The notes below the pieces were generated by a model. It saw nothing but the letters and a program-made list of their open reading frames with translations, made no database searches and was not told where the DNA came from. Positions 16,609 to 37,774 of a stretch of DNA of 64,000 nucleotides are shown one piece after another. Position 1 is the stretch's first letter. Every line of letters starts with the position of its first letter. Made by a program: the position numbers and the translations under genes. This stretch comes from an uncultured delta proteobacterium (GTDB lineage Bacteria; Desulfobacterota; Binatia; Binatales; Binataceae), in assembly GCA_963806485.1 (NCBI GenBank), contig CAWDXY010000004.1, forward strand, positions 893,349 to 957,348, in the 5' to 3' direction.

Positions 16609-17943
16609 TCACTCTATATGGTATCGCTTCCGTTTACGCCAGAGCGTGGGGATGCTTATGCCAAGGGTGGCGGCCGCGTCCTCAAGAGTTGGAGCGACCG
16701 CCAACACCCGCTTGATGTGCTCTTCCTCAAGTTCCTCGAGGCTTGAATCCGCTGATACCTGGATCGGCCGTTGTGTGCTCGGCGCAAAGAGCACGTCAGA
16801 GAGATCTTCCTTGCGTATGACCGTGCCACGACTTAGAACGACCGCGCGCTCCACCACGTTGCGGAGCTCTCTGATGTTCCCTGGCCACGAATATGGGATC
16901 AGGGCCTTCCTGGCCTCTTCTGAGAAATGGAGATCAGAACGGCGATTTCGCGCAGCCGCCTCGGACAATAGCTTCTCGGCTAACGGCAAGATGTCTTCGG
17001 GGTGCTCGCGTAACGCGGGCACCCGGAGGCTAATCACGTTGAGCCGGTAATACAGGTCAGCTCGGAAGCGACCGGCGGCGATTTCCTGTTGCAGATCGCG
17101 ATTAGTGGCAGCGATGACGCGTGTGTCAACTGAAATCGTCTCTTGCCCTCCGATCCTCTCGAAACATCCGTCCTGTAAGAAACGAAGGAATTTTGTCTGA
17201 AGAGATAGCGACAGTTCCGCGAGCTCGTCAAGAAAAAGCGTGCCCTTATTCGCCGCTTCGAGCCGACCGGGCTTGTCCTTGATCGCGCCCGTGAAAGACC
17301 CTTTCATGTGGCCGAACAGTTCGCTTTCCAGCAGATGTTCCGAAAGCGTGGTGCAATTCACAGTGACAAAAGGGTGCTGGTGTCGAGGGCTCCATCCATG
17401 TATCTGACGAGCGAGTACATTCTTGCCAGTACCGCTCTCGCCCGTGAGCAGAATACTCGCTTCGCTGGCAGCCGCTGTGAACGTGACTTCGATCAGCTCA
17501 CGAAATCGAGAGCTGGCGGAAGCCAGCAACGGAACGCCATCGATTGAGTCGCGCAGCGCACGATTTTGAGCGCGCAACTCCTTGACCTCGAGAGCGCGCT
17601 CAACTGCGTGCTGCACCTGATCGAGGGAAAAAGGTTTGGTGAAATAGTCGTGTGCGCCCGCCTTCATCGCCGCGACAGCGTTATCGATGGTGCCGTAGGC
17701 GGTCATGAGAATCACAACCGTGTCGGGAAACTTCTGTTTGATGGTCTTGAGCAGCTCGAGGCCATTCATCTCGGCCATTCGCCAATCGCTCAATACCAAA
17801 TCGAAGTCACCGCACTTCGACATTAGATCCAGCGCCTGACGACCGCTGTCCGCCGTGGCCACCTTGTAGTTGCATGACTCAAGGAATCTGGCGACCCCCT
17901 GCCTGATGTTCTTTTCGTCGTCGACGATGAGCAGCTTAGCCAT
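16609..17943 (-). CDS. sigma-54-dependent response regulator (NtrC family: receiver + AAA+ sigma-54 activator + Fis-type HTH)
   Basis: Receiver motifs VDDE, LVLSDWRM, ILMTAYG, FTKPF; Walker A GESGTGKN; GSFTGA (GAFTGA variant); C-terminal HTH. Confidence 0.9.
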   Translation of the reverse strand: MAKLLIVDDEKNIRQGVARFLESCNYKVATADSGRQALDLMSKCGDFDLVLSDWRMAEMNGLELLKTIKQKFPDTVVILMTAYGTIDNAVAAMKAGAHDYFTKPFSLDQVQHAVERALEVKELRAQNRALRDSIDGVPLLASASSRFRELIEVTFTAAASEASILLTGESGTGKNVLARQIHGWSPRHQHPFVTVNCTTLSEHLLESELFGHMKGSFTGAIKDKPGRLEAANKGTLFLDELAELSLSLQTKFLRFLQDGCFERIGGQETISVDTRVIAATNRDLQQEIAAGRFRADLYYRLNVISLRVPALREHPEDILPLAEKLLSEAAARNRRSDLHFSEEARKALIPYSWPGNIRELRNVVERAVVLSRGTVIRKEDLSDVLFAPSTQRPIQVSADSSLEELEEEHIKRVLAVAPTLEDAAATLGISIPTLWRKRKRYHIE

Positions 17944-19088
17944 CAGACGTCCCTTGAAGTGGGCAGCGTTAACGTAACCTTGCAGCCGCTTTCCAGTGTT
18001 TCCGCGAACAGTCTCCCTCCATGCGCCTCGATGATTTCCTTCGCGATGGCGAGGCTGATTCCGGTCCCAAGGCTTTGCAAATCGCTATTGGCCTCGGTCG
18101 GACTATCAAAGACCAGTTCCAGTACCTGCGGTGGAATTTCAGACCCGCTGTCCCAAACAGATATTCTGATCTGGTCGTCTTCCTCCTCTGCGGTCAAAGC
18201 GATGTTTCCCATTTCAGGCGTGTAGCGCACCGCATTGCCGACGAGAGTGGCTATCACCCACAACAGCTTCAGCGGGTCACCTGAGACTCTGAGGTTCCTT
18301 TCGGCGTGCACATCAAATTTGATTTTCCGACGTTCGATCCGATTTCTAAACTTTCTGGAAACGACCTTGAAGATAGTCCAAAGGTCAAATCCTACCTGAC
18401 GAAACGCTACTGACCTGGGTTGCTCACGTATGAAGTTCAGAAAATCAGCAGATAGGCGATTTAGCCGATCGACATCTTCCACAATTTCGCGAATCAACTC
18501 GGTCTGCCGCTCTCCGGTGCGTTGCAAGAGTCCCACCGCCAGGGACACGGAGGTCAAAGGCGTGTTGAGCTCCTGAGCTACTGACACTACCGTGTCGTTT
18601 CGGAACCTGCTTTTATCGAAAAGCTTTGAAAGATGGCGAAGTACGACGAAGGTTCCGAAGGTACTGCGGTCGCTCCTTCGCAGACGAGCCGTCTTCAAAA
18701 CATAGCTGCGCTCGCAACCCTCTACGTTCAGACCAAGTTCAATCTGCCACTCGTCTCGGGGACAACCCCTTACCCCTGTGAGGGCGGCTCGGATGCGCGC
18801 ACAACTCATGCTGTGACGGTCAAGGTCGTCGTTAAACGGTTGACCGACGATCTGATCGCGTTCGACAGCCAGGATTTCGGCCGCCGGCTGATTCAGGTGA
18901 ATTACAGTTTCAGTCTCGTCGAGGACAAACGCGGCTTCATCGAGACAATCGACTATCGCCGCGACACGATCATCACTATCGCTAAAGGCCCTTTCGGTTC
19001 CCACAGCGAACACCCCGTCGGCGCTTTGCGCCGCCTGACACTTTCTGACTCTAAGCCGGCGGCGCTCCGAAGTGCTTGCGCAGCTCAA
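17943..19088 (-). CDS. PAS-domain sensor histidine kinase homolog whose H-box His is replaced by Gln; true start probably downstream of 19051
   Basis: H-box reads VSVAQELNTPLTSV (CAG at 18573-18575) where HisKA consensus is S-H-E-L-R-T-P-L; intact N box GNAVRYT, G1 DSGSEIP, G2 GTGISLAIAKEIIEAHGG; stop overlaps RR start. Confidence 0.8.
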   Translation of the reverse strand: MSCASTSERRRLRVRKCQAAQSADGVFAVGTERAFSDSDDRVAAIVDCLDEAAFVLDETETVIHLNQPAAEILAVERDQIVGQPFNDDLDRHSMSCARIRAALTGVRGCPRDEWQIELGLNVEGCERSYVLKTARLRRSDRSTFGTFVVLRHLSKLFDKSRFRNDTVVSVAQELNTPLTSVSLAVGLLQRTGERQTELIREIVEDVDRLNRLSADFLNFIREQPRSVAFRQVGFDLWTIFKVVSRKFRNRIERRKIKFDVHAERNLRVSGDPLKLLWVIATLVGNAVRYTPEMGNIALTAEEEDDQIRISVWDSGSEIPPQVLELVFDSPTEANSDLQSLGTGISLAIAKEIIEAHGGRLFAETLESGCKVTLTLPTSRDV

Positions 19089-20070
19089 GGTTGACCTGGA
19101 GCACGTTCACCATGTTTTCGCCCACTAGTCCGTAGAGAGGGGCGGATGTGTCAGCCTGCAATATCTGTTCGATCTCCGTCCGCACCTGACCTTCGTCGCG
19201 CTTGGTGTCCTTCGCCCATGCAGAAGACACTCGATCAAGCTGATACTCTGCGTTTTGTAGCGTGATGTTGGGATCCAGGCCTGACGCCGAGGTTGTTACC
19301 ATATCTCCGGGCACGTCCTGGAGATTCGCGTCAGGATTTTCCTGCCGCCACATATCAAAGAAGTTCGACTGAATGTCAGAGCCGCTGGCAACTGGGTGAA
19401 TCACTGTCTGAGTCTTTCCACCCGGGAGCTGATTTGTAACAGCTGAGGGGAACTTACCGGGAGTGTCCTTCGAGAAGTTTTCAAAAAAGACGACCGCTAG
19501 ATCCGAAGCCTGGGGCTGGGGCGTTCCCGGATTCTGCTTGATCCAATCCTTTACCACCGCGTCATGGTCCTTGGCCCAATCGGTCACATATTGCGCGTGT
19601 GTCGGATCCGCACTCACCCACGCCTGCGCGAGTTCATTATGATTGTCGGCCCACTGTGCGACTATATGAGGCTGCCCCCCGAACTTATCCTGCTGAAACC
19701 ATGCTTCGATATCCGGCGCAACCAATTGTCCTTTCTTCGGCTCCTCGCCGTACTTGACGATCGGACCAAGCATATTTGCGACCCGATTTCGAAGCGCATA
19801 GTTCGATGCTGCCAGGGCGGACGACGCTGATGCGGAACCATCATAAGACGCGGCAGAAGGTCGGGGCTGAAAGTATTCGTCCTTGGTGAACGGTTGTGCG
19901 ATCAACAGCGAGCCCACCGGTTTGCCGTCTGGCCCGTCTACCATGCTGCCGTTGGCGGTAAACGGGAAAAACGTTTGCCCGATTGCCAATACTGCTAGAG
20001 GGTAAATCAGACAGCAGATCACAACCGAGACGCCCAGGAGAAATAAGCTCTTTGAAATGTAGCTACGCAT
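19051..20070 (-). CDS. kdpC: potassium-transporting ATPase subunit C, long form with internal insertion
   Basis: N-terminal IYPLAVLAIGQTFFPFTANGSMVDGPDGKPVGSLLIAQPFT...FQPRPSAA and C-terminal VPGDMVTTSASGLDPNITLQNAEYQLDRV...VNVLQVNLEL match KdpC ends; 339 aa vs typical ~190. Confidence 0.85.
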   Translation of the reverse strand: MRSYISKSLFLLGVSVVICCLIYPLAVLAIGQTFFPFTANGSMVDGPDGKPVGSLLIAQPFTKDEYFQPRPSAASYDGSASASSALAASNYALRNRVANMLGPIVKYGEEPKKGQLVAPDIEAWFQQDKFGGQPHIVAQWADNHNELAQAWVSADPTHAQYVTDWAKDHDAVVKDWIKQNPGTPQPQASDLAVVFFENFSKDTPGKFPSAVTNQLPGGKTQTVIHPVASGSDIQSNFFDMWRQENPDANLQDVPGDMVTTSASGLDPNITLQNAEYQLDRVSSAWAKDTKRDEGQVRTEIEQILQADTSAPLYGLVGENMVNVLQVNLELRKHFGAPPA

Positions 20071-20090: not shown

Positions 20091-22247
20091 TTACGCGATC
20101 AAGTGCATCGAGCTCAGCACGACATCGATCAGTTTGATGCCGATAAAGGGTAGAATGACGCCACCTAAGCCCCAGATTACGAGATTTCTGCGCAGCAGAG
20201 CGTCAGCGCCAAGAGGCCTGTATTTGACGCCTTTCAGTGCTATGGGAATCAGGGCAGGAATAATGACAGCATTGAAGATGACCGCCGACAGGATCGCAGA
20301 CGTAGGCGAATGCAAGTGCATGACGTCCATAGCCTTGAGCCACGGCAGAGTGCCGGCGAAGAGGGCCGGCACGATCGCGAAATATTTTGCTACGTCGTTC
20401 GCCACTGAAAAGGTCGTCAGGGCGCCGCGCGTCATCAGCAACTGCTTGCCTATCTCGACGACTTCAATCAGCTTGGTCGGGTCCGAATCGAGGTCGACCA
20501 TGTTGCCCGCTTCCTTGGCCGCCTGAGTTCCGGAATTCATCGCCACGCCGACGTCTGCCTGGGCGAGTGCCGGGGCATCATTGGTGCCATCGCCCATCAT
20601 CGCGACCAGTTTGCCATCGGCCTGTTCTTTGCGAATGTACGCGAGCTTGGATTCCGGTGTGGCCTGAGCCACGAAGTCGTCTACCCCCGCACGCTTTGCG
20701 ATGGTCGCCGCGGTTAGAGGATTGTCGCCAGTGATCATCACCGTTCTGAGACCCATGGTGCGCAGACGCTCGAAACGTTCACGCATCCCAGTCTTCAGAA
20801 TGTCTTCGAGCACCACCACACCAACGATGTTGGAATTCTCGGCTACCGCCAGCGGTGTCGCGCCGCTGGAAGCGATCTCGTTAACGATTTGATCCAGCCC
20901 GTTGGGAATTGTGCCACCGTTCCGCCGCGCGAACGCCACGACTGCGTCTGCAGCGCCCTTGCGGATATTGCGGCCGTCCGCCAGGTCAACTCCGCTCATC
21001 CTGGTCTGTGCACTGAAATCAATAAACTTCGCGCCTGCTGGCGGGTTCAGTTCGCCGAGAGTGACGCCATCAGCCACCGCTTGCGTAACGATGCTTTTAC
21101 CTTCGGGAGTCTGATCAGCCGTCGAGGCAAGCGCGGCGAGAAGAGCTACCTTCGCTTTGGAATAGGCGCCCACCGGCCGGAAGTCGGTCGCGCGGCGATT
21201 GCCGACCGTGATCGTTCCGGTCTTGTCGAGCATCACGGTATCGATGTCGCCGGCCGTCTCTACTGCCTTGCCGCTCTTGGCGAGAATGTTCGCTTGCAGA
21301 GCGCGGTCCATTCCCGCGATCCCAATCGCGGCAAGCAATGCTCCGATCGTTGTCGGGATCAAACAGACCAAGAGCGCGACCAGGGTTGGTACATCAGTTC
21401 CGAGACTCTTAACGGGGGCTGGAAGGCCCAGGTATCCCATCATGTATTGCTCAGCGTTCCACGCGAGCGGCCACAGGGGAACAACGACGATAAAGAACGC
21501 GACTGTAAGTCCCGAGAGCACGAGCGTCAGCGCAATTTCGTTAGGTGTCTTCTGGCGAACGGCACCTTCGACCAGAGCGATCATGCGGTCGAGAAAGGCC
21601 TGTCCAGGCAGCGCGGTGACTTTCACTACGATTCGATCCGAGATAACTCGCGTCCCTCCGGTAACTCCGGACCGATCACCGCCGGCCTCGCGAATGACCG
21701 GAGCAGATTCGCCGGTGATAGCTGCTTCATCAACTGAGGCGATTCCTTCGACTACGTCTCCGTCACTAGGAATGACCTGGCCGGCTGTGACCACTACGCG
21801 GTCGCCTGGTTTCAAATCGGTCGATCGGACTTCTTCGAGACTGTTGCGAGTCGTTAGCCGGTACGCGGGTGTCTCGCTGCGGGTCTTGCGCAAGGAGTCG
21901 GCCTGGGCTTTGCCACGCGCCTCTGCGAGTGCAGTAGCAAAGTTGGCAAAGAGTACGGTTAGCCAAAGCCAGAAGTCGAGCCCGATGAAATAGCTGATTG
22001 GAACCTGGCTCGCAGAGGCGCCCATTGCCGCTTGTATGATAAACAGCAGCGTAAGAACCGCGCCGATCTCGACCACAAACATGACCGGATTGGCCCACTG
22101 GATGTCCGGGCGGAGCATCACGAAGGATTGCTTCAACGCTTGGCGCACCAGCTCAGGCTCGAACAACGCGCGGCTTCTTATTCGCCGCGGAGGCGGCAAC
22201 GGTGTCGGCGCTTCACTCCTCTGTATTGATTGAACTGCTGCTCCCAT
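20091..22247 (-). CDS. kdpB: potassium-transporting P-type ATPase subunit B
   Basis: P-type ATPase motifs [23 protein letters not shown]; KdpB-specific N-terminal region. Confidence 0.95.
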
Positions 22248-22318: not shown

Positions 22319-24136
22319 CTATCCGCCGAATGGAATAGGACCTAAGTGTTCTGCGAGAGGACCGAGCGCAGCCACAGGAAGGAACAACAGCGCGCCGACG
22401 ATGACGATCGTTCCAAAGAGCAGGCAGCCGAACGTAAAAGTGTCGTCACGAAGGGTTCCCAGCCCGAACGGAGTACTTTTCTTCAATCCAAGGAACGCTG
22501 CCATCGCGATCGGAGCGACGATCGGCAGATAGCGACCGAACAGGATCACCAGACCGCCTCCGATGTCCCACGGGACCGCCTCGGGTGCCGGACTTGTGTT
22601 GTTATTCAGTCCATAGCTCACGCCCAAGCCATCGAAGGCTGAGCCGTTGTTCGCCGATGATGACGAGAACTGATAAACGATTTGCGAAAGACCGTGGGCG
22701 CCCGGATTGCTCTCCGCCTTGATGCCCCAATTCGTTGCCGCGTAGAGTCCCGATGGTCCCAGAATCAGGAAGGGATGGACCAGCAGGGCGATCATCGCGA
22801 GCTTCACCTCGCGAGCGCCGATCTTCTTGCCCAGGTACTCCGGCGTTCGTCCAACCATCTGTCCGGCCAAAAAGACGCCGATGATGAGGAACAGCAGCAA
22901 GTTGATCATGCCGACGCCTTTGCCGCCATAAATGCAGTTGAGCCACATGCCCCAGAATGGCGAGAGCGCTGCGATAGGATTCAGGCTGTCATGCTCGCAG
23001 TTCACCGCACCGCAAGTCACATCGACCGTAGCAGCAGCAAAGGTAGCACCAGCCGAGGTCCCGAAACGCAGCTCCTTGCCCTCGAGATTGCCAAGGTGCT
23101 GATCGACCGGTAGTCCGGCCACGGCGGGAAGAGTAATGACCTGCTTTCCACCCGGCGCACCGGCGTTCGCGATCGTAAATGTCCGGCTCACGGGATGGGC
23201 AGTCAGACCCGGGTTGGGTTGCATGGTGTCGAAGTAGATCGCCCAGACAACTGTGCCGACGAATAACGTCAGCATGACCCCAAAAATCACAATCGAGTGA
23301 CGCAGCCTCCCCAGCATGCGTCCGTACATGAGCACGAGCGCCATCGGGAACAGCATCATGCAGAAGGTCTCGAAGAAATTTGTGCCTGCGCCCGGATTCT
23401 CGAAAGGATGAGCCGAATTCATGCCGAAAAATCCGCCGCCGTTGGTTCCCATCATTTTCATCGGGACGAAAGCAGCTAGTGGCCCCATTACGATGTTCTG
23501 CTGTTTGGGCTGATTGTTGTTGTCCAGCCCCATCGCAGCGGGTTCAAGCGTCGTGACCGTTTGGACGTTCTGATAGGTCATCGGCATCCCCTGTACGAGG
23601 AAGACCATCGAGATCACGAACGCCGCGGGTAGAAAGAAATAAACCACCACTCGCCACATATCGAGGAAGTAGTTGCCGAGATGAGAATCGCCGCGCAGCG
23701 CGCGGATTATGGCAGTAAGAGCGCATAAGCCGACCGCGGCAGAAAGAAAGAAGTTCGCTATACAAAAGAAGATCTGGCTGAAAATCGAGAAGGCTACGTC
23801 TCCCGAATAGTGCTGCATGTTCGTGTTCGTGATGAACGAGATCACACTATGGAAGATTGTGGTCGGCGCCAGCATTCCGAGTCCGCGCGGGTTAAGCGGC
23901 ATCCACGGCTGCAGCGAAAGCACCATATAGCCGTAAACGAACAGAGCTACGTTGAAAACTAAGAGAGCGAGCGTGTACTGTGTCCAACTCATCGGGCCAG
24001 AATCCAGGCGCTTCTCAAACCACTGCAAAACGCCCGGGGCGCGGTACTTGCCGTCCATGATCTTTGCCATATAGCTGCTGAGCGGAATGGCTATGGCGAT
24101 AGTGAAGACGATTATAGAAATGGGCAGAAGCCACAT
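22319..24136 (-). CDS. kdpA: potassium-transporting ATPase subunit A
   Basis: 605-aa polytopic membrane protein with KdpA selectivity-filter-like segments (MGTNGGGFFGMNSAHPFENP). Confidence 0.95.
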   Translation of the reverse strand: MWLLPISIIVFTIAIAIPLSSYMAKIMDGKYRAPGVLQWFEKRLDSGPMSWTQYTLALLVFNVALFVYGYMVLSLQPWMPLNPRGLGMLAPTTIFHSVISFITNTNMQHYSGDVAFSIFSQIFFCIANFFLSAAVGLCALTAIIRALRGDSHLGNYFLDMWRVVVYFFLPAAFVISMVFLVQGMPMTYQNVQTVTTLEPAAMGLDNNNQPKQQNIVMGPLAAFVPMKMMGTNGGGFFGMNSAHPFENPGAGTNFFETFCMMLFPMALVLMYGRMLGRLRHSIVIFGVMLTLFVGTVVWAIYFDTMQPNPGLTAHPVSRTFTIANAGAPGGKQVITLPAVAGLPVDQHLGNLEGKELRFGTSAGATFAAATVDVTCGAVNCEHDSLNPIAALSPFWGMWLNCIYGGKGVGMINLLLFLIIGVFLAGQMVGRTPEYLGKKIGAREVKLAMIALLVHPFLILGPSGLYAATNWGIKAESNPGAHGLSQIVYQFSSSSANNGSAFDGLGVSYGLNNNTSPAPEAVPWDIGGGLVILFGRYLPIVAPIAMAAFLGLKKSTPFGLGTLRDDTFTFGCLLFGTIVIVGALLFLPVAALGPLAEHLGPIPFGG

Positions 24137-24173: not shown

Positions 24174-24254
24174 CTAGAACCACTCGGGCCGGATCATCGC
24201 GGCCAACAGGTAAATAAATACCAACGCGGCCACTATCGCTGTCATGATTATCAT
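24174..24254 (-). CDS. kdpF: potassium-transporting ATPase subunit F (26 aa)
   Basis: Minus-strand ORF MIIMTAIVAALVFIYLLAAMIRPEWF directly upstream of kdpA; single-TM peptide resembling KdpF; not in ORF track (too short); coordinates +/- 2 nt. Confidence 0.75.
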   Translation of the reverse strand: MIIMTAIVAALVFIYLLAAMIRPEWF

Positions 24255-24263
24255 CGCTGCCTC

Positions 24264-24359
24264 CTAGATCTTCTCGCACGCGACCAAAAACGCGAAACAG
24301 AGGCCGAGGCTGATGAGCCCCAAGAGGAACGTCCCAGGCAACCAGATGGCCACATCCAT
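24264..24359 (-). CDS. conserved 31-aa hydrophobic mini-protein upstream of kdpF (copy 1)
   Basis: ORF MDVAIWLPGTFLLGLISLGLCFAFLVACEKI; stop 9 nt before kdpF start with GGAGG in between; paralogous ORF before second kdp operon keeps frame and hydrophobicity. Confidence 0.55.
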   Translation of the reverse strand: MDVAIWLPGTFLLGLISLGLCFAFLVACEKI

Positions 24360-24533
24360 AGATTCATCCTACCTTTCCGCAAGCGATGAGCTGGCGGCAT
24401 GCTTCTCGAGATTCAGTTCAGCTGCCCTCAAAGCCTTTCGGATAGCCGAACGTAGACAACTCCGATTAAGAAAATTGCTACCGTTATGCCGACGAAAAGC
24501 ATGTCGAGCATGGTTCTCAAGCCTCAGGAGCAA

Positions 24534-24552
24534 GGCAGCACAAACCATGCCT
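24534..24552 (-). promoter_or_regulatory. candidate sigma-54 (-24/-12) promoter for kdp operon 1
   Basis: Minus strand reads AGGCATGgtttGTGCTG vs consensus TGGCACGnnnnTTGCW with conserved GG and GC at correct spacing, ~170 nt upstream of the mini-ORF. Confidence 0.25.
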
Positions 24553-24782
24553 CGGTATTTTCTATACGAATGCTATTTTTTTCGTCAGGGACGACTGGCG
24601 AGGGTTTCAAAATGATAAGTGACAGTGCGAATCGAAGGCCGGCAGGCTCTAGAGCCAAGTCGATATGTGGTAGTTCGATCAGGGTCAGGGCTGCAAGGGA
24701 TGTAGCTAACGGATACAGAAGTTGCGGGGCCGTTATCTATCGACCCCGCAACCCTTGACCTTGAAGCCAAGAAGGCCGCTAG

Positions 24783-25796
24783 TTATTGAGGCTGTCCGAA
24801 ACGGCTTGCTAATTGCAAATTGACTTGAAGAACATTGACAAATTTTTCCCCAAACAAGCCTCCTAGAGGAGCCGATGCGTTCGCCTCGAGTATTTGCTCG
24901 ATTTGATCGTGCACCTGTTTCGGGTCCAGTTTTTTATCGGCAGCCCATTTCTGAGAGACGCGATCCAGCTGATATTCCGCATTATCTAGAGTGATATGCG
25001 GGTCGAGGCCTGAGGCCGACGAGGTAACCATGTCACCGGGGACATCCTGGAGCGCTGCGTCTGGATGGTCTTGTCTCCACATGTCGAAGAAGATCGATTG
25101 CACATCCGATCCACTTGCGACCGGCTCGATGTCGGTCTGCGATTTGCCATTAGGCAGCTGCTTGGTCACTGGCGATGGGAACTTGCCGGGATTGTCCTTG
25201 GAGAAATTCTCGAAAAACAGTACAGCCAGGTCCGAGGGCTGTGGCTGTGGTGTGCCCGGATTCTGCTTGATCCACTCGTCCACCGCGCTCTTATGACTTT
25301 TGGACCAGTCAGTTACGTACTGAGCGTGAGTAAGATCGGCGCTTATCCATCCTTGCGCCAGCTCGTTGTGATCGTCAGCCCATTGTGCAACGAGATGCGG
25401 CTGACCCTGGAATTGATCTTTCTGAAACCACGCCTCGACATCCGGCGCAACCAACTGGCCAGCTTCGGGGCCGACCTTATATTTCACGATAGGTCCCAAT
25501 TGCCGGGCCACTCTGTCTCGTAGCGCGTAGTTAGATGCAGCGAGCGCCGATGAAGTACTGGCTGAGGCATCGTACGATGCCGCTGAGGGCCGTGGCCAGA
25601 AGTACTCGTCCTTTGTGAACGGCTGTGCGATCAACAGTGAGCCGACCGACTTGCCATCCGGTCCTGTGACCATGCTGCTATTGGCGGTAAAGGGAAAGAA
25701 GGTCTGGCCGATCGCCCACACTGCAAGCGGATAGGCTATCGCGCAAACTACGACTGTCGCAGTTAGGAGTATCAGGCTTTTGACTATGTTTCGCAT
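24783..25796 (-). CDS. kdpC: potassium-transporting ATPase subunit C, second copy (long form)
   Basis: ~75 percent identical to 19051..20070 product incl. the internal insertion. Confidence 0.85.
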   Translation of the reverse strand: MRNIVKSLILLTATVVVCAIAYPLAVWAIGQTFFPFTANSSMVTGPDGKSVGSLLIAQPFTKDEYFWPRPSAASYDASASTSSALAASNYALRDRVARQLGPIVKYKVGPEAGQLVAPDVEAWFQKDQFQGQPHLVAQWADDHNELAQGWISADLTHAQYVTDWSKSHKSAVDEWIKQNPGTPQPQPSDLAVLFFENFSKDNPGKFPSPVTKQLPNGKSQTDIEPVASGSDVQSIFFDMWRQDHPDAALQDVPGDMVTSSASGLDPHITLDNAEYQLDRVSQKWAADKKLDPKQVHDQIEQILEANASAPLGGLFGEKFVNVLQVNLQLASRFGQPQ

Positions 25797-25826
25797 CGCT
25801 TTTCTTATCCTCGAATGGAACCGTCC

Positions 25827-27992
25827 CTAGGCCACCACGTGCATTGTGGTGAGTATTATGTCGATAAGCTTTATGCCGATGAACGGTAAAATTACGCCGC
25901 CGACTCCCCAGACCATCAGATTTTTGCGCAACAAAGCATCGGCGCCGAGTGGCTGATACTTGACACCTTTCAGCGCCACTGGAATCAGGATTGGAATGAT
26001 GACGGCGTTGAAGATGACCGCCGACAGGATCGCTGACGTGGTCGAGTGAAGATTCATGATGTCCATGGCCTTGAGCCACGGCAGCGTACCGGCAAATAGC
26101 GCAGGGATGATCGCGAAATACTTGGCAACGTCGTTGGCGACCGAAAATGTCGTTAGCGCGCCGCGTGTCATCAGCAATTGCTTGCCAATCTCCACGACCT
26201 CGATCAGCTTGGTAGGATCGGAATCGAGGTCGACCATGTTGCCGGCTTCCTTAGCAGCCTGCGTTCCGGAGTTCATCGCCAGCCCGACGTCTGCCTGCGC
26301 CAGCGCGGGAGCGTCGTTGGTGCCGTCGCCAACCATCGCAACCAGCTTGCCTTCGCCCTGTTCTTTGCGGATGTAAGCCAGCTTCGATTCAGGAGTGCAT
26401 TGAGCGACGAAATCATCGACGCCGGCATGCCTCGCAATCGTCGCAGCAGTGAGCGGATTATCGCCTGTGATCATCACGCTGCGTACACCCATCGCGCGTA
26501 GACGTTGCAGACGCTCGCTGATGCCAGTTTTGAGGACGTCGGACAGTACGATGACGCCGACAATGTTTGCGCCCTCGGCCACCACGAGCGGCGTCGCTCC
26601 CTGCGAGCCGATAGCGTCGACTACAGAATCAAGATCCGATGGCATCGTGCCTGATTGGCGCTGGACAAACTTAGCCACCGCGTCCGGCGCTCCCTTGCGG
26701 ATCTGTTTGCCGTCGGGAAGATCGACACCGCTCATGCGGGTCTGCGCTGAAAAGGTAACAAAGCTCGTACCATTAGGAGCAGTCACATCGGCCGGAGTTC
26801 CGCCGCGATCAAAATGTAGTTTGACGATGGTCTTGCCCTCAGGGGTCTCATCGGCGATCGAAGCAAGTGCCGCCAAGCGTCCGACTTGCTGTGCGGTGTA
26901 TCGGCCTACCGGCAGGAAATCAGTCGCGTGCCGGTTACCCATGGTGATCGTGCCCGTCTTGTCGAGTAGGACCGTATCGATGTCGCCTGCGGTTTCGACG
27001 GCCTTACCGCTCTTGGCCATGATGTTCGCTTGCAGTGCGCGATCCATTCCGGCGATGCCAATGGCTGCCAGCAGCGCGCCGATCGTCGTCGGGATCAGAC
27101 ACACGAGCAACGCAACAAGCGTCGGTACATCCGTGCCCAGACTCTTTAGCGGTTCGGTGAGTCCGAGATATCCCGACATGTAGATCTCGGCATTCAGCGC
27201 CATCGGCCACAGCGGAATCACTACGATCAAAAACGCAAGGCTCAATCCGGCCAAAGCTAGTGTCAGCGCGATCTCGTTGGGTGTCTTCTGGCGTACAGCT
27301 CCCTCGACCAGAGCGATCATGCGATCGAGAAATGATTCGCCGGTTGCCGCTGTAATCTTCGCGACGATGCGATCCGAGACCACGCGAGTTCCGCCAGTAA
27401 CGCCAGAACGATCGCCGCCGGCCTCGCGGATCACAGGAGCTGATTCGCCGGTGATCGCTGATTCATCAACCGAAGCGATTCCTTCGATGATTTCGCCATC
27501 GCCCGGAATGATTTGCCCGGCCTCAACCACGACTCGGTCACCGGGTCGCAGGTCAGCGGACGACACCTCCTCGATCATATCCTTGCCCTTGAGCCGATAC
27601 GCCGGCGTATCCTTGCGGGCTTTTCGCAAGGATTCCGCCTGGGCGCGCCCGCGCGCCTCGGCCAGGGCCGTCGCGAAGTTCGCGAATAGGACAGTCAGCC
27701 ACAGCCAGAAGTCGAGAGCCACAAAGTAGCTGATAGGAACCTGGCTCACAGATTGACTGACCGCCGCTTGTATAATGAACATCAGCGTCAGTACGGAGCC
27801 GATTTCGACGACGAACATGACCGGGTTGCGCCACTGTACGTCCGGCCGCAGCATCAGGAATGCTTCCTTGATAGCTGGCCAGATCAGCTCGGGAGCGAAC
27901 AACGCCTGTGCGCGTGATCGCCGGGGCGGAATGGGCATCTCTGGCGTGATGTGAATCTCAGGTGGTGCAGGGTACTTTTTTAAAGCTTCCAT
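25827..27992 (-). CDS. kdpB: potassium-transporting P-type ATPase subunit B, second copy
   Basis: [17 protein letters not shown]; ~85 percent identical to first KdpB. Confidence 0.95.
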
Positions 27993-28053
27993 TATCGAGT
28001 CCTTAATGAGTCAATCGCGGATAAACGTGTCAGGCTCTAAGAGCTGGATCTAG

Positions 28054-29871
28054 CTAACCCCCGAAGGGTAGTGGCCCAAGATGTTCTGCGACCGGCCCGA
28101 GCGCGGCTACCGGCAGGAACAGCAAGGCGCCGACGATAGCGATCGTTCCGACCAGCAAGCATCCGAAGGTGAAAGTATCGTCGCGCAGAGTGCCCAAGCC
28201 GAATGGAGTGGTCTTTTTCATTCCAAGGAAACCCGCCATGGCGATCGGCGCCAAAATCGGCAAAAACCGGCCGAGAAGGATTACGAATCCCGCCGCTATA
28301 TCCCATGGAACAGCTTCGGGCGCGGCGTTCGGATTGTTATTCAGGCCGTAGGTGACTCCCAGGCCATCGAATGCGGAGCCGTTGTTAGCTGAGTCCGACG
28401 AGAATTGGTAAACGATTTGTGAGAATCCGTGGGATCCTGGATTGCTCTCGGCCTTTATTCCCCAGTTTGTTGCAGAGAACAATCCCGCCGGGAAAAGGAT
28501 GACCAACGGATGTACGAGCAGAGCAATTAGCGCCAGTTTCACTTCGCGCGCGCCGATCTTCTTTCCAAGGTACTCGGGCGTCCTGCCGACCATCTGCCCA
28601 ACTACGAAAATGCCGATGATGAGAAAGAGCAGCATGTTGATCATGCCGACACCTTTGCCGCCGTAGATGCAGTTCACCCACATTCCAAAGAAAGGCGACA
28701 ACGCCGCCATCGGGTTAAGGCTGTCGTGCTCGCAAATGATTGCGCCGCAAGTGAAATCCACCGTGGCGGCCGCAAACGTCGAGCCCGCGGAAGTCCCGAA
28801 GCGCAGCTCCTTGCCCTCCAAGTTGCCGAGATGCTGATCGACGGGCAGGCCTGCCACGGCAGGCAGAGTAATGTCGCGCTTGCCCCCGGGCGCAGTGGCG
28901 CTTGCAATCGTGAACGTTCTACTTTGCGAATGAGCTGTAAGCCCTGGGTTAGGCTTTAGAGTATCGAAGTAGATTGTCCACAGAATTGTACCCGCGAGCA
29001 GAACAAACATCACCGAGAATATGACCAATGAATGGCGCGGGCGTCGTAACATCGCGCCGTACATCCACACCAGCGCCATCGGAAACCACATCATCGATGA
29101 GGTAGTGATGAAGTTCGACGCGGCATCCGGGTTTTCAAACGGGTGCGCCGAATTCATCCCGAAGAATCCGCCGCCATTCGTTCCCAACATCTTCATTGGA
29201 ACGAAGGCAGCCAGAGGACCAGTTACAATCGTTTGCTGTTTGGGTTGATTGTTGTTGTCCGTGCCCATCGCGGCAGGCTCGAGCGTGTTTACCTGATAGT
29301 CGCTCTGATAGGTCATCGGCATGCCTTGAACCAAAAAGACCATGCTCAGGATGAAGACCGCAGGCAGGAACGTGTAGAACACAACGCGCCACATATCCTG
29401 AAAGAAGTTGCCTACGTGCTCATCGCTGCGAAAGGCTCGAATGATCGCTGTCAGGGCGCAAAACCCTATCGCCGCCGAAAGAAAAAACATCGGAAGGCAA
29501 AAGAATATCTGGCTGAAATTCGAGAACGACTGGTCGCCGGAATAGTGTTGGATGTCGGTGTTGGTACTGAAAGATATGACGGTATTAAAAATGGTACTCG
29601 GCGCAAGTGCTCCGAGGCCGCGTGGGTTTAGCGGCGCCCACGGCTGAAGCACCAATACCAGGTATCCGAAAGCATAAAGAACCGTATTGAATACAAGCAG
29701 AGAGACCGCATACTGCTTCCAGTTCTGCGGTCCGCTGCTAACCCGGTCCTCACACCACTTGAATAGCAGTGGAGGACGGTAATGTCCGTCCATGATCCAG
29801 GCCAGATACCTGCCTAGAGGATAGGAGACAGCAACGCTGAAAATGAGAACCGTGATAGGCAAAGACCACAT
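28054..29871 (-). CDS. kdpA: potassium-transporting ATPase subunit A, second copy
   Basis: 605 aa, ~80 percent identical to first KdpA. Confidence 0.95.
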   Translation of the reverse strand: MWSLPITVLIFSVAVSYPLGRYLAWIMDGHYRPPLLFKWCEDRVSSGPQNWKQYAVSLLVFNTVLYAFGYLVLVLQPWAPLNPRGLGALAPSTIFNTVISFSTNTDIQHYSGDQSFSNFSQIFFCLPMFFLSAAIGFCALTAIIRAFRSDEHVGNFFQDMWRVVFYTFLPAVFILSMVFLVQGMPMTYQSDYQVNTLEPAAMGTDNNNQPKQQTIVTGPLAAFVPMKMLGTNGGGFFGMNSAHPFENPDAASNFITTSSMMWFPMALVWMYGAMLRRPRHSLVIFSVMFVLLAGTILWTIYFDTLKPNPGLTAHSQSRTFTIASATAPGGKRDITLPAVAGLPVDQHLGNLEGKELRFGTSAGSTFAAATVDFTCGAIICEHDSLNPMAALSPFFGMWVNCIYGGKGVGMINMLLFLIIGIFVVGQMVGRTPEYLGKKIGAREVKLALIALLVHPLVILFPAGLFSATNWGIKAESNPGSHGFSQIVYQFSSDSANNGSAFDGLGVTYGLNNNPNAAPEAVPWDIAAGFVILLGRFLPILAPIAMAGFLGMKKTTPFGLGTLRDDTFTFGCLLVGTIAIVGALLFLPVAALGPVAEHLGPLPFGG

Positions 29872-29912
29872 TCGCTTTCCGTCCTATTATGTGATTTGAG
29901 AGATGAAGGTCG

Positions 29913-29993
29913 CTAAAACCATTCGGGCCGAACCATCGCGGCGACCAGGTACCCGAACACGAGAACTGCAACGATTGCTGTGACGTAAATCAT
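29913..29993 (-). CDS. kdpF: potassium-transporting ATPase subunit F, second copy (26 aa)
   Basis: ORF MIYVTAIVAVLVFGYLVAAMVRPEWF upstream of kdpA2; ends ...RPEWF like copy 1. Confidence 0.75.
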   Translation of the reverse strand: MIYVTAIVAVLVFGYLVAAMVRPEWF

Positions 29994-30008
29994 GATTAAC
30001 CACGCGCC

Positions 30009-30104
30009 CTAGATCTTTTCGCAACCGATCAAGAACAGATAGCAGAGACCTAGGCCGGCAAGCCCGAGCAGAAAAGTCCCTGGCAACCAAGTCCAAAGAT
30101 CCAT
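30009..30104 (-). CDS. conserved 31-aa hydrophobic mini-protein upstream of kdpF (copy 2)
   Basis: ORF MDLWTWLPGTFLLGLAGLGLCYLFLIGCEKI; LPGTFLLGL and CEKI-stop conserved with copy 1. Confidence 0.55.
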   Translation of the reverse strand: MDLWTWLPGTFLLGLAGLGLCYLFLIGCEKI

Positions 30105-30514: not shown

Positions 30515-30829
30515 TCATCGGACACTGCTGGGTTGCCGCACGGATGAGTCAGAATCCTCATCGAACTTGAAGATTCCGATGCTTTCTGGTTGGACTTTCT
30601 CGAGAACAGCGTGAACGGTGGGTTTGGTTTGCTCGTCAAGGACCGCGAATTCCACTTTGATCGTCGATCCCGTGACCGATTTGTGCTCTCCACTTATAGA
30701 GAGTCGTTGGTGATCGCAGAGTCTGGTCTTTGGCACAGACAAATCAAATCCAAAGATTCCGAGGTTCTTTGCGCATCGGTGGAAGTCGTCGAGAGCCGAG
30801 CGCGCGATAATCGCTTCTATTCTCTTCAT
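30515..30829 (-). CDS. PII-like (GlnB-fold) signal-transduction protein, divergent family
   Basis: MKRIEAIIARSALDDF... N-terminus and overall ~105 aa matching the P-II double beta-alpha-beta pattern, T-loop divergent. Confidence 0.55.
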   Translation of the reverse strand: MKRIEAIIARSALDDFHRCAKNLGIFGFDLSVPKTRLCDHQRLSISGEHKSVTGSTIKVEFAVLDEQTKPTVHAVLEKVQPESIGIFKFDEDSDSSVRQPSSVR

Positions 30830-31276
30830 ACAGGTCGATTGGTTGCCGAGATCCTTTATCGTGAGAGGAGCAGGAACTATGCCTTAGACCGAAGTCAGCC
30901 AATATCAAGTGCTTTTCTCTGCTAAGCCGTTGTCCCACCTCGAGCGTGAAACCCAGGCATTTCAGCGTGAAATCAAATCGGGGTCTTTGCGAGGCGAGTT
31001 CGGCTGATCGCAAATTGACTGCGAACCTATCACCAGGACCGCACCTCTGAGGTTGCGGCCCCACGAGCACCGACCTTCAAGAACTGTCGCGTTACCTGGT
31101 ATATGCGACCGCCATTTCAAAATGAACGATGGACGCTATTCAAAAAGAAATCGCGTGTGCGCAGAGTAAACCACAACTCAAGCAAATCGCAGCTTTTTTC
31201 GAACGGCACACGCTATGCAGATGAATTACAGACGCCGATGCCGCTTCCGAGGATGCGGCAGAGGCCGGGAGAAGTG

Positions 31277-31633
31277 ATGAAGCGAATTGAATTAGTAATT
31301 GAACCATCGGCGCTCGACCGTTTCATAGAGGCCGCGCAAGTGATGAATTTGTCTGACTTTGACGTCACTGAAGTTCGCCGCTCGCCGTCGCACGATCGGC
31401 GAGAACGCCAGCGACTATACCGAGGTCAAACGTTCATCATCGATCTCGAAGAGCGGATCAAAGTCGACATCAACGTAGCTGACGAAGCAGCGAGCAGAAC
31501 CGCGCATGTATTAGTCGCGAGGGTCAATCCTGAAAGCGTCTCGATTCTTAGGCTCGACCAGGTGACTTTGTTCGAAGGTTCCGAGCCGATCAGAGTTACA
31601 GCTTCGTCCCGCGGGGCCGACGTTGCAGCATAG
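31277..31633 (+). CDS. PII-like (GlnB-fold) signal-transduction protein, second paralog (start at internal Met of ORF 31103..31633)
   Basis: MKRIELVIEPSALDRFIEAAQ...LYRGQTFIIDLEERIKVDINVAD parallels GlnB LYRGAEYMVDFLPKVKIEIVV. Confidence 0.55.
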   Translation: MKRIELVIEPSALDRFIEAAQVMNLSDFDVTEVRRSPSHDRRERQRLYRGQTFIIDLEERIKVDINVADEAASRTAHVLVARVNPESVSILRLDQVTLFEGSEPIRVTASSRGADVAA

Positions 31634-36065: not shown

Positions 36066-37774
36066 CTAGGCAACGCGATGACTAGTCCGACGATTTACAG
36101 AGCCTGCGAGCAGCCCGCGCACGCAAATCGCGCCACGCCAAAAGGCATTGTTGTCCCGACAGGCCGACCGAGTCGCTACGGCACCGAAATCGGCGAAAGG
36201 ACAACACCACTGGTCGGGAAGGCGACTACGATTGGCTTTCCGGTCGTCGTGCTGGCCGCCGAAATTATTCGACGGCGGATTGAAATTCAGGTTTCCGGGA
36301 ACTGGGGTCGCGGTCGGAGTGGGGGTCGGTGTCTTTCTGGGCTTTGGCGTCTTTGTGGTTATCGCGGTCGCCGTGGGCGTAGCCGACACGGTCGGGGTTG
36401 GCGTTGTCGAAGTCGCGGTCGCTGTGGCAGTTGCGGTCGGGGTTAGCGTTGTCGAAGTTGCGGTCGCTGTGGCAGTTGCGGTCGGGGTTCGCGTTGTCGA
36501 AGTCGCCGTAGCCGTCGCGGTCGGCGTAGCCGACCCGGTCGACGTTGTCTTCGCGGTGGCGGTCGCGGTAGCTGTCGGCGTGGCCGTCGCGGTCGCTGTG
36601 GGAGTGGCCGACCCGGTCGCGGTTGCGGTCGGCGTGGAAGTGGGTGACGCAGTCGAACTGGATGTTGAGGTTGGTGTCGCGGTCGCTGTGGCAGTCGCGG
36701 TCGCCGTTGCCGTCGAGGTGGCAGTTGCGGTTTGAGTCGCGGTCGCGGTCGGCGTCGCAGTTGGCGTGGCGGTCGGCGTGGCAGTAGGCGTCGGGGTCGG
36801 CGTAGGCCCGGGAACCACGCCGTCGAACTCGAACGCGCCGATGTCGCAGGCGCTGTCGAGCGCGGGTCGCGGCGCGCCGCGCTGGTCGGTGGCCGGGCAA
36901 TTGGCAGCTGGGATCGCCTCGATCGCAAAACTGGGTGAATCAAGCGCGATGGTCTCGGTTGGTCCCAGGTTATTTGCGAGGCCGGCGGCGAGGTTCAGAT
37001 TAGCGTCAGCGACGCTATCGCCGATCGCATCGCCGTTGGCGGCCGTGCTGCTCCCGAAGCCGCAGGAAGCGTCATCCGAGATATTGTCGCCGCCATTGGT
37101 GACAGTCGGCGTCGCCGACCCTGAGCAGTTACCGCCCGAAGTGCTCTTCGCCAATATGCTGTTGGTGATAGTTGTCGTGCCTTCATTGTAGATGCCGCCA
37201 CCAAGTCCGCTCGCCGAGTTGCCGGAGAAGGTGCTGCTGTTGAGAGTCAGCGTGCCGCCGAGAGACTATTGTAGATGCCGCCACCGAAAAGGATCGCCGT
37301 CGAATTGCTGGAGAAGGTGCTGTTGGTGACCGTCCGCGCGCCTCCCTCACTGGCGATGCCGCCGCCATCATCGCCCGACGAATTGCCCGAGAAGGTGCTG
37401 TTGGCGACTGTCTGCGTGCCTCCAACAGTGAAGATGCCGCCGCCAAGCTGGCCCGCCGAGTTGCTGTAGAAGGAGCTGTTGGTGACCGTCAGCGTGCCGT
37501 CATTAAGGATGCCGCCGCCCGGGCCAGCCGCCGAGTTGCCGGAGAAGGTGCTGTTGGAGACCGTCAGCGTGCCGCTGCTTGAGCTGCTTGAGATGCCACC
37601 GCCGAATCCTGATGTATTATTGCCGTGAGCAATCGTCAGCAGGTTTACAGTCAGAGTGGCGCCCGTATTCACCACCAAAACACCGAGCAACGCCGGTCCG
37701 GCAGTCGGCCCCTGAAGTAGAATGTAGGCCACGACCGTTCGAACATCGCCCCCTCGGATCGTGCCCGGACGCAA
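36066..37774 (-). pseudogene. degraded paralog of the beta-helix / TP-linker adhesin-like family (frame break ~37155-37260, no signal peptide, aberrant C-terminus)
   Basis: ORF 37247..37774 encodes beta-helix rungs (TLTVSNSTFSGN, TLTVTNSSFYSN) and ORF 36066..37154 the TPTATPTAT linker, in different frames; C-terminus lacks choice-of-anchor-D domains. Confidence 0.6.

Follow-up and report, generated by a model that had tools for sequence, protein, structure and literature searches.

Short genes for hydrophobic peptides precede kdpF in tandem kdp operons of a Binataceae bacterium and recur beside kdpF in several phyla

The window analyzed here, a stretch of 64,000 nucleotides (nt) from an uncultured delta proteobacterium of the family Binataceae (assembly GCA_963806485.1, contig CAWDXY010000004.1, positions 893,349 to 957,348), carries on its minus strand two kdpF-kdpA-kdpB-kdpC operons in head-to-tail arrangement, each led by a 31-codon hydrophobic open reading frame (ORF). 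A first-pass annotation had pointed to tandem kdpFABC sets preceded by two 96-nt ORFs, and these are indeed present, with kdpF (PF09604), kdpA, kdpB, and kdpC after each ORF. Peptide gene 1 (24264..24359), which encodes the 31 amino acids (aa) MDVAIWLPGTFLLGLISLGLCFAFLVACEKI plus a stop codon, is followed on the same strand by kdpF1 (24174..24254; 26 aa; PF09604, E = 2e-7), kdpA1 (22319..24136; 605 aa; TIGR00680, E = 8e-144), kdpB1 (20091..22247; 718 aa; TIGR01497, E = 2e-301), and kdpC1 (19051..20070; 339 aa; PF02669 in two stretches). Peptide gene 2 (30009..30104, minus strand; 31 aa plus stop, MDLWTWLPGTFLLGLAGLGLCYLFLIGCEKI) precedes kdpF2 (29913..29993; 26 aa; PF09604, E = 1.5e-6), kdpA2 (28054..29871; 605 aa), kdpB2 (25827..27992; 721 aa), and kdpC2 (24783..25796; 337 aa; PF02669), all on the minus strand. 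No third kdpA was found in the window.

Between copies 1 and 2, the peptides are 71% identical, while identity is 77% for KdpF, KdpA, and KdpB (76.9 and 76.6% for the latter two) and 75.5% for KdpC; a range of 71 to 77% was thus measured where ~75 to 85% had been estimated at first, and values up to 85% were not borne out. The peptide ORFs retain 70% nucleotide identity, compared with only ~50% in the 200 nt upstream, and the proportion of synonymous differences between them (pS, 0.72) far exceeds that of nonsynonymous differences (pN, 0.19). The start of kdpF1 lies 9 nt past the stop codon of peptide gene 1, which is overlapped by the AGGAGG of kdpF1. The start of kdpF2 lies 15 nt past the stop of peptide gene 2, with no clear Shine-Dalgarno site in the gap, and a GGAGG is located 5 nt ahead of the ATG of peptide gene 2. 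The GGAGG that the first-pass annotation placed between each ORF and kdpF is therefore correct for copy 1, while in copy 2 it lies ahead of the peptide ORF instead.

One genome per species was scanned with KdpA as the guide, which gave 77 loci, mostly from “Candidatus Binataceae” metagenome-assembled genomes (MAGs); the other loci are labeled Desulfobaccales, Syntrophobacter, Syntrophorhabdales, Terriglobia, Acidiferrales, Planctomycetota, Brocadiia, and Anaerolineaceae, with the proviso that MAG taxonomy labels may be imprecise. At nearly all loci with sufficient upstream sequence the ORF was found, so that the reading-frame conservation upstream of kdpF that had been suggested as a check does exist in related genomes. 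All 75 distinct nucleotide versions have 31 codons, a Shine-Dalgarno site, and an ATG start (GTG in one), and a few additional copies have an N-terminus longer by four codons. All three stop codons occur among the 75 copies, and the distance from the peptide stop to kdpF is most often 10 nt and usually 9 to 11 nt. Entropy at codon positions 1, 2, and 3 is 0.72, 0.49, and 1.42, and pS is 0.76 against a pN of 0.22, which means that synonymous sites are near saturation and third positions are free to vary; closer pairs have a ratio of nonsynonymous to synonymous substitution rates (dN/dS) of ~0.25. Residues G14, F24, and C28 never vary, and W6 and C21 hardly do. Orthologs of peptide gene 1 at four loci (L001, L009, L143, and L170) are 81 to 84% identical to it, and orthologs of peptide gene 2 are found at five (L073, L020 to L022, and L025). 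With a mean pairwise identity of 0.68 for the peptide and 0.73 for KdpF, the two diverge at an equal pace, and peptide divergence tracks that of KdpA (r = 0.60). The relatives listed by a KdpA protein search are all at least 85% identical and set no outer limit to the occurrence of the peptide.

We refer to these peptides as type-31, defined by 31 codons, their own start and Shine-Dalgarno site, a stop codon 1 to 22 nt before kdpF, and the consensus M-[DN]-L-x-x-W-L-P-x-x-F-x-L-G-L-x-x-[LM]-G-L-C-[YF]-x-F-[LM]-x-[AG]-C-E-[KN]-I. Linkage to kdp was also examined without kdp as bait, by scanning metagenome contigs for DNA that fits a degenerate pattern encoding G-L-C-[YF]-x-F-x-x-[AG]-C-E-[KN]-I. 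The pattern matched at least 120 stretches; among the matches listed, 114 are ORFs of exactly 31 aa, and in the 120 listed, kdpF comes next in 109 and KdpA is detectable in 100. The exceptions are due to contig ends, frameshifts, and rearrangements. Both window ORFs, the 75 genome copies, and at least 114 metagenome copies fit the type-31 definition. As conservation at positions 19 to 31 of the metagenome set is biased by the search pattern, the statistics above were taken from the 75 genome copies.

A few of the metagenome loci have an unusual structure. In L158 (12506-12771), a palindromic insert of ~90 nt splits the peptide gene from kdpF, and in L159 an internal deletion joins the start of kdpA to the end of kdpC. 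The 31-aa ORF of L091 (7060-7155) is followed by a hemerythrin-like ORF and that of L121 (1849-1944) by unrelated sequence, in neither case by kdp.

On this comparative evidence, the 96-nt ORFs are real coding genes that are conserved and linked to kdp. A chance ORF was rejected, because the ORFs are more similar to each other than the sequences upstream of them (70% versus ~50%) and because they recur in at least ~200 independent loci. The first-pass annotation had read the pattern as purifying selection on a translated peptide rather than on a noncoding leader, and this reading is upheld by the frame, length, start, and Shine-Dalgarno site kept in 75 of 75 versions and by the excess of synonymous differences, which holds between the two window copies as well as in the closer ortholog pairs.

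Neither window peptide has a Pfam or NCBIfam match at E ≤ 1, while the adjoining kdpF ORFs do match. The exact sequence of peptide 1 is on record in NCBI, JGI, and ENA as a “hypothetical protein,” and a search of a large protein collection with five concatenated variants recovered the peptide mostly as the C-terminus of longer, miscalled “hypothetical proteins.” The full-text literature searched yielded no description of a peptide gene ahead of kdpF, and recent reviews treat Kdp as a four-subunit complex with KdpF as the only small Kdp peptide named (PMC12648545, PMC10654040). The statement that no such Kdp subunit had been described thus holds for Pfam, NCBIfam, and the searchable papers; it needs the qualification that kdpZ/kdpY of Clostridium acetobutylicum offer a positional precedent (see below).

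KdpF itself (PF09604/TIGR02115), a stabilizing subunit of 26 to 30 aa, resembles the peptide in size class, in having a single transmembrane (TM) helix, in operon membership and adjacent position, and in rate of divergence. The two are nonetheless separate sequence families: the peptide matches no KdpF hidden Markov model, lacks the Y-L-x-x-A-L-x-[RH]-P-E-x-F end, and, unlike KdpF, has a conserved C-E-K-I tail and two cysteines seven residues apart. Conversely, KdpF sequences reach at most 6 bits against a type-31 profile and score at background against the type-27 profile introduced below. A KdpF duplicate was rejected on the basis of these background scores.

A third small TM ORF of the window, u1 (24428..24511, minus strand; 27 aa, MLDMLFVGITVAIFLIGVVYVRLSERL), is located 71 nt upstream of peptide gene 1 and leads to a second group of peptides; neither u1 nor the wider family had been noticed in the first-pass annotation. 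We define type-27, a type of alpha- and betaproteobacteria, Deinococcota, and Binataceae, as peptides of 26 to 27 aa that adjoin kdpF, begin with M-x-D-[ILV]-[ILV], and end with ...FFAL(C).AY..[AG]C[DE][KR][LI]. Translated searches (tblastn) revealed a 27-aa ORF next to kdpF in Rhizobium leguminosarum, R. gallicum, Acetobacter, Komagataeibacter, Methylocystis, Roseomonas, and Azospirillum sp. TSH58, as well as in Azospirillum lipoferum 4B, whose PGAP annotation has it in a 42-aa version as “hypothetical protein.” One tblastn query matched 122 plasmid records, 104 of them from Rhizobium (kdpA is present on 468 plasmid records), and the ORF lies immediately 5' of kdpF in all eight regions examined. 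In cultured bacteria (loci L198 to L205 and L208), a 26- to 27-aa ORF of the form M-x-D-..FFAL..AY..AC[DE][KR]L, unannotated or “hypothetical,” directly precedes kdpF. The Deinococcus radiodurans peptide (plasmid MP1; MDILLPLLLVVFFALCAAYLRGMDNL) overlaps the start of kdpF, and in Burkholderia stagnalis (L207, 497-580) and Allomeiothermus silvanus (L213, 573-656) the peptide gene follows kdpF and precedes kdpA. A Caballeronia sp. SBC2 plasmid (L210, 798-902) encodes a 34-aa homolog whose tail is basic (…GCDKLRRTARHRE) and which is annotated as “potassium ABC transporter ATPase”; it is flanked by genes for a kup K+ transporter and a Na+/H+ antiporter outside any kdp operon. No comparable ORF is present upstream of kdpF in Escherichia coli K-12.

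A type-27 profile was built from ten sequences, and scores were compared with those of 1000 composition-preserving shuffles. None of the 1000 shuffles reached the scores of the Deinococcus (24.6 bits), Burkholderia (19.6 bits), Caballeronia (28.3 bits), and Allomeiothermus (11.5 bits) peptides or of window u1 (29.9 bits). In the closest orthologs of operon 1 (L001, L009, L143, and L170), u1 is kept, with pS of 0.18 to 0.45 and pN of 0.05 to 0.09; by sequence, u1 is a clear member of the 27-aa pre-KdpF type, diverged and still under coding-type selection. Its relatives in other Binataceae (MLDTIFFVGTAVFFLVAVTYVWGCEKL and similar) directly precede, with an ATGA overlap, a canonical 30-aa kdpF and a canonical kdpA, in what is a third operon downstream of the long-type operon. 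The layout upstream of peptide gene 1 suggests that the promoter-plus-peptide module of a canonical kdp operon was joined onto a long-type operon.

The two types resemble each other mainly in their C-terminal half, GLCYxFLxACEKI aligning with ALCFAYTRACDRL of Rhizobium, with a seven-residue spacing of cysteines common to both; an acidic or amide residue at position 2 or 3 is also found in both. With the type-27 profile, the two window peptides obtain 9.4 bits (shuffle p = 0.002) and 2.3 bits (shuffle p = 0.058). In the reverse direction, 4 of 16 type-27 sequences obtain 11.8 bits or more with the type-31 profile (p ~0.001 each), with the Rhizobium and Acetobacter peptides at 11.8 to 13.0 bits; shuffles attain 11.5 bits in 0.125% of cases. 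Common ancestry of type-31 and type-27 is likely in view of their identical genomic position, although not proven. Concatenated type-27 variants had no match in the protein collection, and the type-31 tblastn against plasmids found none either, a weak negative in that the Deinococcus peptide failed to recover its own plasmid record, probably owing to low-complexity masking. Negative tblastn results for short hydrophobic peptides are therefore unreliable. The 26- to 31-aa peptides encoded beside kdpF in several phyla probably make up a wider, essentially unannotated family.

Small hydrophobic peptides are not in themselves new to kdp operons. Treuner-Lange et al. reportedly noted in 1997 kdpZ/kdpY (orfZ, orfY) and kdpX in C. 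acetobutylicum, including ORFs for small hydrophobic peptides that are located at the 5' end of the kdp operon and cotranscribed with kdpABC. Cyanobacterial KdpG (kdpABGCD) is likewise a small hydrophobic extra ORF, situated between kdpB and kdpC; the window has a 20-nt gap and no ORF there. Compared by position rather than by sequence, as KdpG was too, kdpZ/kdpY are the closest precedent, the operon name and transcript being given as kdpZYABCXDE in one report (PMC5401905). In Bacillus sp. N5-665 (L211, 446-550) and Subdoligranulum variabile (L212, 401-499), a TM ORF of 32 to 34 aa with an M-(L/M)-D-V… start and a basic tail longer than that of the proteobacterial and Binataceae peptides directly precedes kdpF. 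These Firmicute ORFs match the peptide profiles weakly (3.5 and 1.7 bits; p = 0.012 and 0.066) and may be the counterpart of kdpZ. What is added here is the wide and previously unremarked distribution of such peptides, which includes tractable model bacteria.

The type-31 peptide has an acidic or neutral N-terminus (M-D or M-N), ~22 hydrophobic residues, and the C-E-K-I tail, with lysine at position 30 and often also at 26. Conserved residues W6, M10, L13/G14, G17, C21, F24, and C28 form a stripe on one side of the helix (permutation p ~0.03), the pattern expected for helix-helix packing. The peptide probably spans the membrane once with its N-terminus outside and the tail A/G-C-E-K-I at the cytoplasmic face, as predicted from the positive-inside rule and the basic C-terminal extension of the Caballeronia homolog.

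The tail could also be taken for the processing site of a lipoprotein-type precursor. Residues 25 to 28 would then be a lipobox, and Lgt and LspA would yield a lipidated tetrapeptide C-E-K-I. The lipobox consensus is [LVI][ASTVI][GAS]C, and L25 (or I/M), A/G27, and the invariant C28 do fit the motif L-x-[GAS]-C. The N-terminus (M-D or M-N), however, has no lysine or arginine and hence no basic n-region; the basic residues are C-terminal instead (K30, often K26, and the tail RRTARHRE of Caballeronia), which places the cysteine at the cytoplasmic face. Moreover, conservation extends to the N-terminal W-L-P and the glycine face, needlessly for a disposable signal peptide, and the cysteine is missing in several relatives, namely those of Deinococcus, Burkholderia, and Allomeiothermus and window u1. 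We consider this explanation highly improbable and rejected it.

An alternative that does without any function of the peptide is a cis-acting upstream ORF or leader, in which translation, or stalling at C-E-K-I-stop, would set the output of kdpF and kdpA. The position at or near the 5' end of the operon, in the window and at most loci, and the coupling to kdpF over 9 to 15 nt are what such an element would show, as is the overlap of the copy 1 kdpF Shine-Dalgarno site with the peptide stop codon. Conservation peaks in the block of the last four residues, and a 31-aa nascent chain is at termination still wholly inside the ribosomal exit tunnel. Nevertheless, selection at the amino acid level extends over the full length of the helix, with conservation striped along one side as is typical of packed helices, the third positions of the last codons vary freely, and relatives are encoded between kdpF and kdpA (Burkholderia, Allomeiothermus) or away from kdp. 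A gap of 9 to 15 nt, or the ATGA overlap of type-27 operons, is also too tight for a terminator or antiterminator. The hairpins before the first structural gene that characterize transcription-attenuation leaders have no room in gaps of 9 and 15 nt, elsewhere typically 10 nt; an attenuator-type leader is unlikely because of this gap and because some relatives lie between kdpF and kdpA, and it was rejected. Terminator-like sites are at chance level, and Rfam has no RNA family between 16 and 32 kilobases (kb). A cis-acting role thus appears unlikely. Of the two options left by the first-pass annotation, a Kdp-associated single-TM peptide or a regulatory leader, the short gap, the helical stripe, and the relatives between kdpF and kdpA favor the former.

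Type-31 peptides accompany a long Kdp subtype with a KdpA of 605 aa, a KdpC of ~337 aa that contains an insertion, and a 26-aa KdpF ending in RPEWF. KdpA1 has three insertions relative to E. coli KdpA in an alignment to 6hra_A. Residues 11 to 98 and 242 to 332 of KdpC1 align to residues 11 to 96 and 103 to 184 of 5mrw_C, and the intervening insertion, which KdpC2 shares, amounts to ~140 aa of hydrophilic, Trp/Asp-rich sequence in the periplasmic domain, between positions matching E. coli residues 96 and 103. The KdpC is covered end to end, including the insertion, in 85 of 103 loci, the remainder being truncated or split by frameshifts, and the KdpC insertion and the three KdpA insertions accompany the 31-aa peptide at all loci checked. 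Packing of the peptide against a TM segment in the KdpC insertion was rejected, the insertion being hydrophilic by sequence inspection. Type-27 peptides accompany canonical components, for example a kdpC of 576 nt in A. lipoferum.

The peptide might instead act in the membrane on the sensor kinase or regulator of kdp, as MgrB acts on PhoQ or as has been proposed for mycobacterial KdpF and KdpD. Small TM peptides often target kinases (PMC12648545, PMC3618439), and operon 1 does have a PAS histidine kinase (17943..19088) and an NtrC-type sigma-54 activator, the response regulator (16609..17943), downstream of it on the minus strand, both identified with Pfam/NCBIfam. The Pfam/NCBIfam hits of this kinase, however, start a PAS domain at residue 41 and give no obvious sign of a membrane segment. 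Binataceae kdp operons are not flanked by kdpDE, having the PAS kinase and sigma-54 activator instead, while the related peptides of cultured proteobacteria and Deinococcus sit in canonical-type kdp operons rather than in this arrangement; the constant neighbor is kdpF/kdpA. We regard a signaling role as quite unlikely, still less probable than a cis-acting one. The breadth of the family points to a protein-level role tied to the pump and not to a particular regulator or to a 5' position.

We therefore favor, at a probability of about 0.65, the reading of the peptide as a Kdp-associated accessory helix that would stabilize or tune the pump; translational coupling to kdpF and occurrence with different Kdp subtypes both argue for it. 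A 31-residue single-pass peptide would be coproduced with KdpF, KdpA, KdpB, and KdpC from one mRNA, its conserved helical face would pack against a TM partner within the Kdp complex, and it would stabilize the pump or tune its activity, either in the manner of KdpF or like the small single-helix partners of other P-type ATPases. Its functionally closest analogues may be found among the latter and KdpF, the accessory helix of a P1A-type ATPase (PMC10654040, PMC12648545). Sarcolipin and phospholamban (SERCA), FXYD proteins (Na,K-ATPase), and MgtR/MgtS (Mg2+ transporters) are ~30-aa single-TM peptides with a short conserved tail that tune or stabilize a pump by binding to its membrane domain (PMC10654040, PMC12648545); we adopt them as a functional model by analogy, since they have no sequence relationship to the peptide and serve P2/P3 pumps or Mg2+ transporters.

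Several points weigh against this reading. The KdpFABC complex of E. coli functions without such a peptide, which hence is not universally essential; at least three homologs (L091, L121, and Caballeronia) lie away from kdp; the predicted topology leans on a charge bias that the window peptides themselves show weakly; and homology of the 31-aa and 27-aa types is only suggestive. Finally, the case for translation, membrane insertion, and association with Kdp is built from comparative data throughout.

Among P-type ATPases, Kdp alone is coupled to a channel-like subunit, and all structural and mechanistic work on it rests on the four-subunit E. coli complex (PMC10654040). It is plausible, though somewhat less likely than not, to go one step further and assume that many Kdp ATPases are five-component complexes with an extra single-helix subunit that carries a conserved cytoplasmic [AG]-C-[DE]-[KR]-[IL] tail and is encoded beside kdpF. 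Such an assumption would cover Binatia, MAGs assigned to Desulfobacterota, Acidobacteriota, Planctomycetota, and Chloroflexota, and cultured alpha- and betaproteobacteria and Deinococcota; window operon 1 would specify three helices of this small kind, namely u1, the peptide, and KdpF, and the extra subunit would have been overlooked owing to its absence from E. coli and to gene callers that pass over it. If kdp operons of many phyla do specify an additional membrane peptide, the E. coli complex would represent a reduced form, and the peptide would be a candidate stabilizer or regulator comparable to sarcolipin or the FXYD proteins. In any case, a widespread small gene has been missed by annotation pipelines or labeled “hypothetical protein.” The question lends itself to direct testing, as relatives are present in the genetically tractable Rhizobium leguminosarum, Azospirillum, Deinococcus radiodurans, and Burkholderia.

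With regard to transcription, a sigma-54-like −24/−12 element (AGGCATGGTTTGTGCT; 24537..24552, minus strand) lies upstream of u1 and is the putative promoter of operon 1; it is conserved as GGGCAC(A/G)CTTTATGCT in the orthologs. A second element of this pattern is found upstream of operon 2 (30869-30884, minus strand). Taken by itself, the pattern does not exceed chance in the window, and a sigma-70 promoter scan also gave results at chance level. Together with the adjoining activator gene, kdp appears to be under sigma-54 control here.

Two P-II-like ORFs (30515-30829, minus strand, and 31103-31633, plus strand) are located just upstream of operon 2; their Pfam P-II matches (E = 0.003 and 0.001) are below the gathering score. 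More than 25 Binataceae loci also have P-II-like homologs 0.5 to 0.9 kb ahead of the peptide gene, and these proteins may be regulators of K+ uptake. Elsewhere in the window, (GTCGCG)n-like hexamer arrays occur beside tandem repeats of 78 to 114 nt (~1754-1982, 13811-15015, 36389-37573, 46416-48169, and 55579-55664). The arrays and repeats probably code for (Ala-Thr)n linkers and beta-helix repeats in several large proteins that are related to one another and encoded on the minus strand.

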